Below are positions 1,847 through 6,223 of a stretch of 11,460 nucleotides of DNA, piece after piece. The stretch is from the NCBI GenBank assembly GCA_043718025.1, contig JAYSWN010000089.1, positions 1 through 11,460 of the forward strand. Direction: 5' to 3'. Made by a program: the position numbers and the translations under genes. The DNA is from Pseudomonadota bacterium (GTDB taxonomy: Bacteria; Bdellovibrionota; FAC87; UBA2466). The notes beneath the pieces were generated by a model, which was not told the origin of the DNA, did no database searches, and saw only the letters and a program-made list of their open reading frames with translations. Within the stretch, counting starts at the first letter, position 1. Every line of letters begins with the position of its first letter.

Positions 1847-4800
1847 TCATTCTTTAGCCAGTTCGCGGGCCAGGTTTTCGGTTTCGGCAAAGCCAGCGAA
1901 AGCGCCTTTATCTAGTGACCGCCTTAAGGCCGTGCGGGCGAGCCCGTAGCGGTGTTGTCGGCCGTAGTACAAAACGTTGCCCAACGGTGCCTGCGACCAA
2001 CCCAATTGCGCGGCCTTCTCAAAAAGGGCGAGAGCTTCGTCAGAGGCACCGCGAGAAAAAGCCGCGTAACCCAGCACCCCATAGGGAAGCGGCAGTTTAG
2101 GATAGCGGCGTAGGGTCTCTTCGGCGGTGAGCTCGGCCATGCCCCACTGACTATTGATAAAACGCGAGGCCGTTAAGTTTTGCCAACTCTCGTCGCTAGC
2201 GCGCCCCTCGAAATGCAGCCCTAGAATCTCTTTTTCTGAAGCCGTAGGGGTGATGCCTAAAAGTAACCGGGGATCCCCCAGGCGTTCGATCAGTCCGGCC
2301 CATTTTTCGGCTTCGTTGCGACCCACCCCAGCAAACTGCTTGCGAATGGCCTCAAAGGCCGGACCCGAATGAATTGAGATTTCGCCGTCATCAATGCAGG
2401 GTCTGGCTAACTCTTTTGCCTTTTCATCGATGGGCTGCACAATCTTAACCACATTCTCTTTGGCCTTTTCGCTCATGCCCTTTGCCAAAAGAGTGATTTT
2501 TTTGCTCAGAGCTTGATAGAGCACGGGAATGGAACAGGCGGCCTCGATGCGATGGTAATTTTCGGCTTCAGCGGTCTTAGAGAAATCGACGAATTGTTTT
2601 ACGAGCGCGGCCATCTCTTTGCTGCCCGCCGCAATCCGCTCAGTGGGCTTAGCCGATTTTGGCAGGCCCATTTTTTCGAACTGACTTCGCGCTGCCACTA
2701 ACTCTTTCCATTGGCGGGTGGAAGCCGGTTCCCGCCGCACCACCGCTTTTTGCTTTTCGAGCCAGGCGGTGACTTGTTTGGCTTGGGCGGGATTGTTTTT
2801 ACTTTCGGTTTGAAGCTCAACCATCATTTCGCTGGCTAGCCGGCGATTTCCGGCGGCGTAGGTGATGCGGGCCAAGTTCCATTTGGCCTGGAGGTAGAGC
2901 TCTTTTTCTTTCTCGGCTCCGGGCAGAGTGAGATATTTTTTCCATAAGCCGTGCGCTTTTTCAAAATCGCCAGCGTCTTGGTAAAGCACCGCGCCTAGCG
3001 ACGTCCAAGAGTTTAACTCGGCGGCGGGCCGCGCTTGACCAAGGTAGGTTTCAAGCGTGCGAGAAGCGTCTTTACGTCGATTGAGTTTTTCGTAAAGGGC
3101 AAAGGCCCGGAAGGCAGACTTATCTCTTAGTTCGCCGTGTCGCGGATCGGCCGCAATGGTTTCAAATTTTTGGGCGGCGGCGTCGGTCTCACCCAGAGTT
3201 TCGGCCCAGAAGAAAAGCGCTTCACCGCGTAGTGAGATCAATTCCTTGCGGCGTGACGCCATTTTTTCGTCGATGAGTTTAGAGTCGCACCAGGCAACCG
3301 TTTTTTGCCACTCTTTGCCTTGAAAGTGAGCGACCCGCAAATCTTGAAACGCTTTGATGCCGATCTTGTCGTTGGCGTTTTCGAGAACAAGTTTTTCGCT
3401 CTCCATCATGCCCTTTTCATTCCGGGCATACTTATAAAAAATTGAGGGGCGAAGCGAAGCCACTACGCGGGCATTGGCATTTTTTGAATAAAGAGTTTGG
3501 TACTCGGTCGAGAGACTAAGCAGCATTTCGGCGTTGGCGCTAAGGGCTTTTTCTTCGCCCTTAGATTCTTTACGCTCTAAGGCAAAGAGCAGGTTGCGCA
3601 ACGCTTGTTCTTTTAGTGGCTCTTTCAACGTGGCTTTATACGCCTGCCAATGCAACTGTAGTTGGTCGATGGCCGGTTGGTACTGTTTGCGGTTTAGGAG
3701 CAGCAGGCCTAATTCGTAATGAACGGGCTGGGCGCTGCTCTCTTGGCCGAATAGGCGCAGGTAGTGGCGATCGAAGATCTCCATGCTGTTTAGGGCGGCC
3801 GGTGTCACCTCTTTTTGAAACTCAAAGTGTTGACCCATGGCGATTTCGCGTAGGCGAGGTTCGATATCTTCTTTGCCTTCCCCTAAATAGGGGCTGCCGT
3901 CATTTGGGGTGGAGGTAATGTCGTGTTCGATCTCTTGCCATCGTCGTAGCCGGTAGAGATCGTAAAAAAGATGGCTCTGAAGCGTCAGTTTTTCTTTGGC
4001 CGACGTGCTCTGGGCGTACAATTTTTCGTAAACTTTGGAGGCGGCGGCGAACTCGCCATTTTTGTCTAGCTCGCGAGCAAAATCCCACAGCGCCTCTTTG
4101 AGGGCATCGCCGGTAAAGAGCCGGGGAAATTCGGCAAACGCTTTTTCAACCGTTTCGTTTTCGGCAAAAATGGCGATGTAGTCGCGACTTGATTCTCGGG
4201 TGAGATTAAAGGTTGAAGTTTGTAGTCCCGCTACCCCGGCCCAGCGCATGGCGAGCTCTAGGTTTTTAAGGGCATTGGGGGAGTTGCGAAGGTAGTACCA
4301 GCTCCAGCCCGCTTTGTAGTAGGCGTAGCCTACGATTGGCGAGTCGCTGAACGCTACGATCTGTTGAAAATAGTTGGCCGCCGCTTGGTAGTCGGCGCTT
4401 TCGAAACGGTCGTCGCCCAGAATGCGGTAGGCGTCGGGTGCGTGTTCGTGTTCAGGGTAGTCTTTAAGAAACAGCGAAAGCGTTTTTAGGCCTTCGTCTT
4501 GTCGTTGTAGTTCGAGTTCAGCAAAACCTTTAAAAAAGAGCGCGTCGGCTCGTTTGGGGAATTTTGGATTTTCGTTAAGTAGCCGAGTCATGGTCGAAAT
4601 AGCTTGTTTGCGTAACGTAAGCGCTTCGGCGGTATAGCTGGGTTTGTTTTCGCTTTGCGCCAAGATCATTTTTGCCGAGGCCAATTCCCACATCAACTCT
4701 ACTTGGCGAAACTCTAGGTTATTGGGGCGTGACTTGACCTTGGGAAACGACGTTTCGATTACGCTTAAAACTTTTTCGATCAGGGTGGCCAAACGTAAGT

Positions 4801-6223
4801 CGTGCAATTTTTGAATTTCGGGTTGGTTGCGATCGGCGCGCGCCATAAACTCTCGGCGTAAAATTTCGCGATCTTCTAAATAGGTTTCGGCAAGCATGAG
4901 CTTTGATTGCCGTAAGATGGCGGGCACGGCATTTAACTGGTTTTTGGCGAAGGTAACTTGCAACTTAATGCGCTCTTCGGCGGCAAAGTTTTTCCAGTTA
5001 CTAAGGCGCAACGCCAGCTTTTGAAACGCCGGGTAAGGTCGCATGGTATCTGAGTTGAGCTCATTGAGTTCGGTTTGTAAGTCGGCCTCGAAGCGGTCGA
5101 GGGTTTCGCGAAGCTCACTGCCTTTCATGTCGGCTAGTAGCGAAGTGGGCAGTTTCACCGTGCGGGGGGCGGCGATATATTGCTTGAGCGTCTCTTTGAG
5201 ATCGGCGATGCGGTTATCAAAAAGCTCGAGTACCCTTCGTGCCTCGTCGGTTTTTTGCGTTTCGGTGAGAATCAGGGCCGCTAAGGGCTCGGCCTTATAT
5301 GATTCAAAACTGGTGCTGTACTTTGCCAGCTCCACCGCGGCTTTTTGCCCCTCCTCTTGGCGGTTGAGTTGAATCAAAGTCCAAATGCGTTCGAGCTGGG
5401 CCGTAGCGCGAAAGCGCGAGCCAATCTGAATCTTGTCGTAGTGTTGCAGAGCGATGCCAAAATCTTTTTTGGCGTAGGCCAAGCGGGCGAAGGCTAGGGT
5501 ACCTAGCTCGCCGAGTTCTTGGCTCTTTAAAATGCGATCGGCGTCGAGCGCTACGTGAAACGACGGGCCCCAGTGCAACGTAAATTGGGTAACCATTTGT
5601 TGCCACACTTCGGAGGGCTGGGTCATTACCTGTGAGCTATAAAGACCAACTAGGTATTTTTCGGCCAGGGCCGTGTTGTCTTCGCGCAGGGCGATGGCGG
5701 CCAGGTGGTAGCGCGAGAGGGGAAAGTAGCGCGAGTGCGATTGAATCTCGGTAAAGTGAGTGGCGGCGGCTTTGGTGTCGCCCTTTGACAGGGCAAAGCG
5801 GGCTTTGGCGTAGCGCACTTCGTCTTCAAGGTAGCTGGGCACGTGGCTTAGATTTGCCTGTTCTAACGAGCTGGGTAGCAAGGGGGCGGGAACTTTTTTC
5901 TGAAATAGGGCGGCCAATTCGAGCAGCCGGGTTTCATTTTCGGTGAGTTCGTCTTTGCTTTTGCCGCCCTTTAAGTCGCCGATCACGGTAAGGGCGGCGA
6001 GCGGCAGGCGTTTTTCGAAAAGGGCGATGGCGGTGCGAACGCGCAGTTTACGGTACTCGGGCAAAGTGATGGGAAGCTCGTGCGTGCATTGCAGGGCGCG
6101 GCTCCAGTCCTCTTTTGAAAAAAGCGATTCGCATTCGGCGGCGGAGCTGCCAAATGACGGGACGGAAAGCAAAGCGGCTAGCGCAATGAGAACGGCCCTA
6201 TTTGTCTTGGTGATTTTGCACAT
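1847..6223 (-). CDS. Large exported TPR protein with a GltD/AgmU-like core plus GltC-like N-terminal and GltE-like C-terminal segments, 1458 aa
   Basis: Signal peptide (RAVLIALAALLSVPSFGSSA) and many TPR-like helix pairs. The GltD-type block ADALFF..FLKDYPEHEHAPDAYRILGDDRF..SPIVGYAYYKAGWSWY..LTRESSRDYIAIFAE lies at about aa 558-688. The gene is directly upstream of the gltF/gltG-like genes. Confidence 0.82.
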   Translation of the reverse strand: MCKITKTNRAVLIALAALLSVPSFGSSAAECESLFSKEDWSRALQCTHELPITLPEYRKLRVRTAIALFEKRLPLAALTVIGDLKGGKSKDELTENETRLLELAALFQKKVPAPLLPSSLEQANLSHVPSYLEDEVRYAKARFALSKGDTKAAATHFTEIQSHSRYFPLSRYHLAAIALREDNTALAEKYLVGLYSSQVMTQPSEVWQQMVTQFTLHWGPSFHVALDADRILKSQELGELGTLAFARLAYAKKDFGIALQHYDKIQIGSRFRATAQLERIWTLIQLNRQEEGQKAAVELAKYSTSFESYKAEPLAALILTETQKTDEARRVLELFDNRIADLKETLKQYIAAPRTVKLPTSLLADMKGSELRETLDRFEADLQTELNELNSDTMRPYPAFQKLALRLSNWKNFAAEERIKLQVTFAKNQLNAVPAILRQSKLMLAETYLEDREILRREFMARADRNQPEIQKLHDLRLATLIEKVLSVIETSFPKVKSRPNNLEFRQVELMWELASAKMILAQSENKPSYTAEALTLRKQAISTMTRLLNENPKFPKRADALFFKGFAELELQRQDEGLKTLSLFLKDYPEHEHAPDAYRILGDDRFESADYQAAANYFQQIVAFSDSPIVGYAYYKAGWSWYYLRNSPNALKNLELAMRWAGVAGLQTSTFNLTRESSRDYIAIFAENETVEKAFAEFPRLFTGDALKEALWDFARELDKNGEFAAASKVYEKLYAQSTSAKEKLTLQSHLFYDLYRLRRWQEIEHDITSTPNDGSPYLGEGKEDIEPRLREIAMGQHFEFQKEVTPAALNSMEIFDRHYLRLFGQESSAQPVHYELGLLLLNRKQYQPAIDQLQLHWQAYKATLKEPLKEQALRNLLFALERKESKGEEKALSANAEMLLSLSTEYQTLYSKNANARVVASLRPSIFYKYARNEKGMMESEKLVLENANDKIGIKAFQDLRVAHFQGKEWQKTVAWCDSKLIDEKMASRRKELISLRGEALFFWAETLGETDAAAQKFETIAADPRHGELRDKSAFRAFALYEKLNRRKDASRTLETYLGQARPAAELNSWTSLGAVLYQDAGDFEKAHGLWKKYLTLPGAEKEKELYLQAKWNLARITYAAGNRRLASEMMVELQTESKNNPAQAKQVTAWLEKQKAVVRREPASTRQWKELVAARSQFEKMGLPKSAKPTERIAAGSKEMAALVKQFVDFSKTAEAENYHRIEAACSIPVLYQALSKKITLLAKGMSEKAKENVVKIVQPIDEKAKELARPCIDDGEISIHSGPAFEAIRKQFAGVGRNEAEKWAGLIERLGDPRLLLGITPTASEKEILGLHFEGRASDESWQNLTASRFINSQWGMAELTAEETLRRYPKLPLPYGVLGYAAFSRGASDEALALFEKAAQLGWSQAPLGNVLYYGRQHRYGLARTALRRSLDKGAFAGFAETENLARELAKE

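Follow-up and report, generated by a model that had tools for sequence, protein, structure and literature searches.

Are three subunits of an Agl-Glt-type machine joined in one protein at this locus, and what would such a protein do? The question is raised by contig JAYSWN010000089.1 of the Bdellovibrionota assembly GCA_043718025.1, whose 11,460 nucleotides (nt) are here called the window. A preliminary description, made from the letters alone, had proposed that the window encodes a single protein of 1458 amino acids (aa) combining counterparts of the tetratricopeptide repeat (TPR) proteins GltC, GltD, and GltE. We find that this protein, P0001, is encoded by a single uninterrupted open reading frame (ORF) on the minus strand (1847 to 6223), and that the 1458-aa fusion is real and conserved rather than an assembly artefact. 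It is fairly probable that gltC, gltD, and probably a truncated gltE are joined here in a conserved fusion gene, whose product would act as a one-piece periplasmic transducer of a proton-driven machine of the Agl-Glt type. The three segments follow the native C-D-E gene order. The motifs quoted in the preliminary description lie where it had placed them: GTLAFARLAY (aa 241, nt 5503), VQPIDEKAKELARPC (aa 1262), WQNL (aa 1347, nt 2185), and YGVLGYAAF (aa 1381).

That three genes were joined by an assembly or frameshift error, or that the protein is simply a long GltD of the ordinary kind, has a negligible probability. The artefact is favored by nothing except that the genome is a metagenome-assembled genome in 234 contigs. 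Two checks that the preliminary description had proposed, of read support and for equally long homologues, both speak for the fusion. A 7,921-nt contig from two possible source runs spans window positions 70-7000 with zero differences and a flat depth of ~11; two further runs from the same study gave only short pieces matching the window. This read-level support is not independent of the assembly, whereas orthologues are. Three full-length orthologues share 77, 65, and 35% identity with P0001. Among 400 genomes sampled from the phylum, 17 others carry full-length orthologues, 15 of them as single ORFs of 1414-1634 aa and two split across contig ends. Their best E values (1e-95 to 0, versus 1e-20 or weaker for ordinary GltD) set them apart, and the 17 genomes span seven family codes. 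Among the best 150 matches of a tail profile in 1.84 billion representatives, 29 clusters (50% identity) measure 1350 aa or more, and 28 of these score for C and D alike; 24 shorter family matches among the same 150 all begin inside the fused profile and are fragment-like. Orthologues at 30-77% identity have the same architecture, which rules out the artefact. The reading as a long GltD fails as well, given standalone GltD lengths of 966-1110 aa in 22 loci and a GltD profile that starts only near aa 477.

An unfused cluster on contig C126 of the same genome encodes a TIGR04565 barrel, GltC (NF033756, E = 6e-41), a 1057-aa TPR protein, GltE (NF033758, E = 7e-12), GltF, and GltG. Seeds derived from it yielded reference sets of 25 standalone GltC, 22 GltD, and 22 GltE proteins from fetched loci (L080, with interrupted genes, was excluded). 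The label GltD denotes position between NF033756 and NF033758 matches plus similarity to the seed; scans gave no curated GltD model. Segment comparisons with HHalign were built on 18 fused proteins.

The N-terminal module, comprising TPRs and a helical hairpin (aa 30-458; 4850 to 6136, minus strand), aligns with GltC 34-445 of 491 at 99.9% (E = 8e-31, 392 columns), and at just 85.6% with GltD. With a Myxococcota-type GltC (411 bits) as first row, the value is 99.88%. A profile of the N-terminal family finds three GltC paralogues as the top non-self ORFs of this genome. The C profile reaches a median of 80 bits over 39 N-terminal thirds, and reversed decoys do not exceed 6.4 bits. NF033756 matches 12 of 16 orthologues (best E = 3.5e-12). 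Its whole-protein cut-off of 450 bits is not reached by the window segment (19 bits); the model appears narrow, because the standalone C126 GltC (141 bits) also falls below it. Against these results, P0001 alone scores 55 bits with the C profile and an unrelated TPR protein scores 50. Generic tools return repeats: for the fusion, Pfam gave TPR matches alone, all sub-threshold; Foldseek with a model of aa 28-760 gave generic TPR solenoids (template modeling [TM] score < 0.27); and a sequence search of the PDB gave only consensus TPR, YbgF/CpoB, and MamA, with no solved Glt relative. On the strength of the HHalign result and the paralogue matches, the GltC-type segment of the preliminary description is firm.

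Equally firm is its GltD block with a GltD-like ending. The GltD module (about aa 468-1290; 2354 to 4822, minus strand) aligns over aa 477-1284 with GltD 85-1014 of 1057 at 100%, and scores 162-276 bits per orthologue. Against proteins in which GltD and GltE are fused, a single continuous alignment runs from aa 484 to 1443. An AlphaFold2 model of aa 28-760 (mean pLDDT [predicted local distance difference test] 85, predicted TM score [pTM] 0.69, junction blocks 87-93) places a turn of six residues (aa 462-467; 4823 to 4849, minus strand) between the last long helix of GltC (aa 398-461) and the first helix of GltD (aa 468-492). The C-D contact predicted for Myxococcus involves GltC helix 481-517 and GltD helix 67-97, with GltE on GltD's C-terminal domain (PMC11761067). 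M. xanthus GltC is 673 aa long (PMC3169522). With a Myxococcota-type GltC and this length as the ruler, rather than M. xanthus sequences, the GltC contact helix would map roughly to aa 335-380, within the retained part. The GltD contact helix is likely the first GltD helix here.

The fusion begins with a signal peptide (about aa 1-28; 6140 to 6223, minus strand), its sole strongly hydrophobic stretch; along the hydrophobicity profile of P0001, no internal GltD or GltE signal peptide is left. Because no lipobox cysteine is conserved in 39 N-termini judged by eye, the product is likely cleaved by signal peptidase I (SPI) and soluble in the periplasm.

What is the C-terminal tail? The preliminary description had called it a shortened GltE core, and this part of its claim stands less securely than the others. 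The probable remnant (aa 1327-1443; 1895 to 2245, minus strand) comprises about three TPRs corresponding to GltE ~85-205; the GltE lipoprotein signal and C-terminal part are not in the tail. HHalign aligns aa 1332-1441 with GltE 90-205 of 288 at 97.0% (score 72), compared with 63% for the C profile and 19% for D. Among 31 genomes, the best match to the tail is gltE in 15, a D-E fusion (through its E module) in 7, a PilF-like gene in 5, another TPR protein in 3, and none in 1. These are the genomes with fetched glt loci, which are mutually kin; only first-look candidates were scored, using a profile built from fused tails alone. The search of 1.84 billion representatives could not rank GltE, as repeat-rich proteins dominate the non-family ranks by summed score. 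In one orthologue (L069:5955-10567), a frame break close to aa 1423 divides the tail, and the OmpL47-type neighbor of this orthologue (a gene discussed below) is interrupted too; L069 was excluded from the tail alignment.

Several results count against GltE ancestry. A PilF/Tgl-like profile scores almost as well on the tail (95.8%, score 59, versus 57-71 for size-matched GltE draws), and the GltE profile is promiscuous, giving 97% on the C and D segments too. The best match to the tail in this genome is a PilF-like gene (32 bits, versus 17 for a D-E fusion and 6 for gltE), as it is in 5/31 others, and NCBIfam finds Tgl and PilW in 3 and GltE in 1 of 15 tails. The ESM Atlas yields generic TPR clusters only, and the tails of a sister subfamily, type II, are not E-like (16%). 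These points would suit a GltC-GltD fusion with a PilF/Tgl-like or generic TPR cap, GltE having simply been lost. We consider that alternative improbable, given that GltE or an E module is top in 22/31 genomes, that the tail is in register with GltE ~85-205 and, in one alignment that also covers D, with the E module of D-E fusions, and that D-E fusions recur across the phylum. The tail also lies exactly between the end of D and gltF, with no separate gltE there, as the preliminary description had noted. From its position and the best-match counts, the tail probably derives from GltE.

The preliminary description had further taken the fusion, if real, as Rosetta-stone evidence for direct contact and stoichiometry among the three subunits. 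Chain order supports C-D and D-E proximity and says nothing of C-E contact. A 1:1:1 stoichiometry is fixed for this lineage and for this lineage only, and D-E fusions are common. On the GltD tree, D and E switch between the fused and the separate state 8 times (starred branches force at least 5 of the switches; L022 and L092 were left out of this count, their E module not being shown), and the C fusion arises once. Thus, D-E fusion is common and C fusion is a rare event. The C-fused proteins form one clade, with support of 94 (15 rows) and 100/100 (6 of 26 rows). FastTree places loci of the gltA/B-C-DE type as its sister (0.963); IQ-TREE did not settle this. The type II proteins are sister to the CDE clade (96; 90/94 in the 26-row tree); one of their loci, L158, had been excluded from the first trees as L104. 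No member of the C-fused clade was found in 53 sampled genomes of family f8, nor in 27 of family f13.

The fusion sits among other agl-glt genes, with gltF, gltG, and an aglRQS-type motor all present. Upstream, and overlapping its start by 26 nt, a gene of 213 aa carries GYF_2 and PilZ domain matches (6198 to 6839, minus strand); it directly precedes the fusion in 17/17 other genomes. Both motifs of c-di-GMP-binding PilZ receptors (RxxxR and D/NxS/AxxG) occur in the PilZ protein of the window, as RRHGR and as DIAEGG (DxAxxG), and both are found in 8 of 14 orthologues scanned; it would be a cytoplasmic regulator sensitive to cyclic dinucleotides. The GYF domain of GltJ binds AglZ (PMC11135422), and Bdellovibrio gliding is controlled by cyclic GMP-AMP from a GGDEF enzyme (PMC9140294). 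Downstream by 22 nt lies gltF of the CglF family (94 aa; 1540 to 1824, minus strand; NF033764, E = 3.9e-5, below cut-off), likewise adjoining the fusion in 17/17 other genomes. After another 23 nt comes gltG (473 aa; 95 to 1516, minus strand; NF033760, E = 2.8e-45, below cut-off), a short form that carries a single transmembrane helix (aa ~144-162) and a TonB-C-like end. It is present in 16/17 other genomes; in the remaining one the contig ends. Scans for promoters and terminators did no better than chance.

At one end of the window is a short, dispersed, palindromic repeat of ~100 nt (1 to 97). At least 15 contigs carry matches to it, frequently at their ends, and its read depth is 7-8 times that of the genome. 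The same repeat family begins contig C210, where a 538-aa OmpL47-type gene is divergent from a TolQ/TolR/TolR (aglRQS-type) triplet (C210:96-3411, L152). No exact overlap joins the ends of the window contig (C222) and C210. C210 likely continues the window locus past a repeat-caused break, an adjacency whose sole basis is the arrangement of orthologue loci. The locus order would then be GYF-PilZ, fusion, gltF, gltG, a convergent OmpL47-type gene, and the motor. The OmpL47-type gene is convergent to gltG in 11/19 fusion loci, usually then followed by aglRQS, and aglR is inside the fetched span in 11/19; the motor of this genome is on C210.

Two changes distinguish the fused GltC from its standalone relatives. 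The C-terminal motif E-x-W-x-x-[ED]-x-G is found in 25/25 standalone GltC and 0/39 fused proteins (best fused score with a motif hidden Markov model, 4 bits); the fused form lacks the last ~45 aa of standalone GltC, which is the motif region (E-x-W-x-x-[ED]-x-G...C). It has gained an insert of ~30 aa (aa 197-232; 5528 to 5635, minus strand), seen as a gap in the alignment to standalone GltC. In an alignment of 39 fused proteins judged by eye, the insert is well preserved in 34, degraded in 2, and missing in 3. Part of it (aa 202-228) has a pLDDT under 50 in the AlphaFold2 model, and we regard the insert as a candidate partner-binding or docking element. A word-based search in which the top ~8000 candidates were scored, a weak search, found no standalone insert-bearing C module of 210-758 aa at E = 0.001.

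The locus itself has changed in parallel. A gltA/B barrel gene lies within 600 nt of 24/25 standalone gltC genes, the remaining one being located where its contig stops; 0/19 fusion loci have such a gene within the span fetched. In Myxococcus, a GltB strand is modeled between two GltC strands that PMC11761067 does not specify; these GltB-binding strands may correspond to the lost C-terminal tail. A close OmpL47-type orthologue (37-81% identity, the lower boundary being set at a gap in the results) occurs in 17/18 fusion genomes and 0/383 others. The exception, G120 (98% complete), has no NF047446 match, its gltG adjoins aglR, and its insert is degraded. The OmpL47-type protein has five NF047446 stretches (199 bits, under the 250-bit equivalog cut-off) and an SPI-type N-terminus, and is modeled as all-beta tandem beta-sandwiches (pLDDT 87, pTM 0.57). 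By fold it is closest to stalks built from beta-sandwiches in tandem (GhpA, cadherins, titin), with generic matches at a TM score of ~0.4. Leptospira OmpL47 is surface accessible, yet found in the aqueous phase on partitioning (PMC2698987).

More distant OmpL47-type homologues (27-34%) occur in 14 genomes, 12 of them within a Glt locus and 11 in an operon with gltF-gltG-aglR. Loci with this operon (OmpL47-type, gltF, gltG, aglR) are the type II loci L157-L165 and L167-L169. Eight of them have a divergent GYF(-PilZ) gene and a protein of 1190-1387 aa, in which an eroded GltC (97.8%), bearing an insert at the equivalent site, is followed by GltD and a non-E-like tail. Type II includes the sole four GltD-positive genomes among 100 sampled in family f10.

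From these patterns we tentatively propose a barrel-independent machine, in which the insert replaces the GltC barrel tail and grips a five-domain, immunoglobulin (Ig)-like OmpL47-type rod serving as outer coupling or adhesin, under a GYF-PilZ switch. It would be a second design of envelope force transmission, whose candidate carriers, all uncultured, are about 30/401 sampled Bdellovibrionota genomes in two subtypes. Some observations count against it. Fusion genomes encode GltA/B-family barrels elsewhere, some without adjacent gltC (C196 here), and a metagenomic fusion locus (L173) has a separate gltA/B-gltC pair ~5 kb upstream. The OmpL47 co-occurrence amounts to one origin plus one co-loss and so does not serve as a statistical test. 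P0029, P0049, and P0050 also lack the insert; a metagenome scan for the loci of insert-less proteins returned 13 loci, none of them theirs. The fusion might therefore still dock on barrels encoded elsewhere, with the OmpL47-type protein a nonbinding, co-inherited accessory (adhesin or spacer). The barrels without an adjoining gltC would be available to it, and the retained TPR part of C may carry the barrel contacts. We nevertheless hold this to be less likely than not. The motif split of 25/25 versus 0/39 parallels the loss of gltA/B from the locus, the OmpL47-type gene lies within the gltF-gltG-aglR operon in 11 type II loci, and the co-loss in G120 points the same way.

How might the fused protein work? 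By analogy with the Myxococcus model (PMC11761067), the AglRQS motor would turn GltG, whose periplasmic arm would wrap the GltD part, and GltF would connect GltG with D and with the crevice in C. The hairpin of C is predicted to pack on the first helix of D, held by the short covalent turn, and the E remnant would cap the C-terminus of D. As in Myxococcus, the fusion would form a periplasmic shaft that links GltG/AglRQS to the outer envelope. With the GltC C-terminal motif and the GltE lipid anchor lost, the scaffold probably attaches to the outer envelope in a different manner, most likely via the co-inherited OmpL47-type Ig-repeat rod, for which the insert is a candidate docking site. GYF-PilZ would regulate the machine from the cytoplasm in a cyclic-dinucleotide-sensitive manner.

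We give about even chances to surface adhesion or gliding as the output, and no better, because Agl-Glt paralogues also serve other envelope tasks. The Nfs paralogue serves Myxococcus sporulation, a non-motility envelope task. A comparable role here (surface-polymer placement, envelope remodeling, or prey attachment) would be compatible with the fusion, and we think it a serious possibility that falls somewhat short of even. At least three further gltD paralogues occur in this genome, and B. bacteriovorus has four sets, the core complex alone giving no motility (PMC3169522, whose Fig. S1 gives the nfs locus tags). PMC13104615 calls the Bdellovibrio gliding machinery unidentified. Adhesion or gliding is favored by the GltJ-like GYF domain and PilZ, which suggest regulation of the motility type (PMC11135422, PMC9140294), and by the linked rod, which resembles adhesin stalks.

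Further glt genes lie elsewhere in this genome. An orphan GltD-GltE fusion of 1358 aa (C156:2325-6813, L021) has a 117-aa PilZ-like gene upstream and no gltC, gltF, or gltG adjoining, and orphan gltC-gltA/B pairs occur on C2 and C51. A cluster on C169 (5264-14994, L022) comprises aglRQS, D, F, G, C, and the barrel, the last two being separated by a small GYF-like gene. P0006 (1647 aa) is a GltD homologue whose ~720-aa N-terminal extension was considered as a second C-D fusion and rejected, its GltC match being only 7.7%. The rest of the window carries genes of other kinds. A 129-aa ACT-domain protein (6982 to 7371, plus strand; PF21631 and ACT_7) is unrelated to the glt locus. A secreted-looking protein of 1144 aa (7409 to 10843, minus strand) has no Pfam match and a lower GC content of 0.45-0.49; in the ESM Atlas it matches a 1040-aa cluster (0.90), with weak leads to CTXL_M and Endotoxin_N (0.80-0.85). 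Upstream of it, a 149-aa lipoprotein-like ankyrin gene (10840 to 11289) could encode a partner.

On independent evolutionary grounds, a natural single-chain C-D-E protein supports the arrangement predicted for C with D and for D with E. The periplasmic GltD/E/F transducer is described as lacking biochemical evidence in PMC11761067, where an AlphaFold study predicts the C-D and D-E contacts for Myxococcus; GltG goes unmentioned in the available text of PMC12204202. The fused chain would be a simpler target for expression and cryo-electron microscopy with GltF and the GltG arm. It also indicates what is dispensable in the fusion lineage: the GltC tail, both lipid anchors, and over half of GltE. 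For gliding in Bdellovibrionota, PMC13104615 lists the motor, the adhesins, and the path of force as open; here the OmpL47-type rod is a new candidate component, and GYF-PilZ a candidate cyclic-dinucleotide regulator. The GltC motif loss, the ~30-aa insert, the missing gltA/B, and the linked GYF-PilZ and OmpL47-type genes go beyond the preliminary description. In the open full-text literature (subscription papers lay outside the search), we found no description of the fusion or of the OmpL47 link.

Among known systems, the closest is the Agl-Glt machine of Myxococcus xanthus (GltC/AgnA, GltD/AgmU, GltE/AglT, GltF, GltG/PglI, and AglRQS), to which the locus is homologous in C, D, probably E, gltF, gltG, and the TolQ/TolR/TolR motor. 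The Myxococcus model has GltD at its center, touched by GltC through one helix close to the GltD N-terminus and by GltE at the opposite, C-terminal end, which corresponds to the chain order here (PMC11761067). Unlike Myxococcus, the window encodes C, D, and probably E as one polypeptide, which lacks the GltC C-terminal motif and any lipid anchor of D or E; GltG is short, and the locus has GYF-PilZ and OmpL47-type genes instead of gltA/B. Other Bdellovibrionota glt clusters (C126, C156, and C169 here; four sets in B. bacteriovorus, PMC3169522) share the C-D-E-F-G gene order, and D-E fusions appear in several of their GltD clades, but they keep a motif-bearing standalone GltC adjoining gltA/B. 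Tol-Pal and TonB-ExbBD likewise combine a proton-channel motor with a TolA/TonB-like arm, here GltG; in our locus, a large TPR scaffold replaces TolB/Pal, and there is no TonB-dependent receptor. Finally, the neighboring OmpL47-type protein shares NF047446 stretches with Leptospira OmpL47 (NF047441/NF047446; PMC2698987), but it scores below the equivalog cut-off and is predicted to form tandem beta-sandwiches rather than a membrane barrel.

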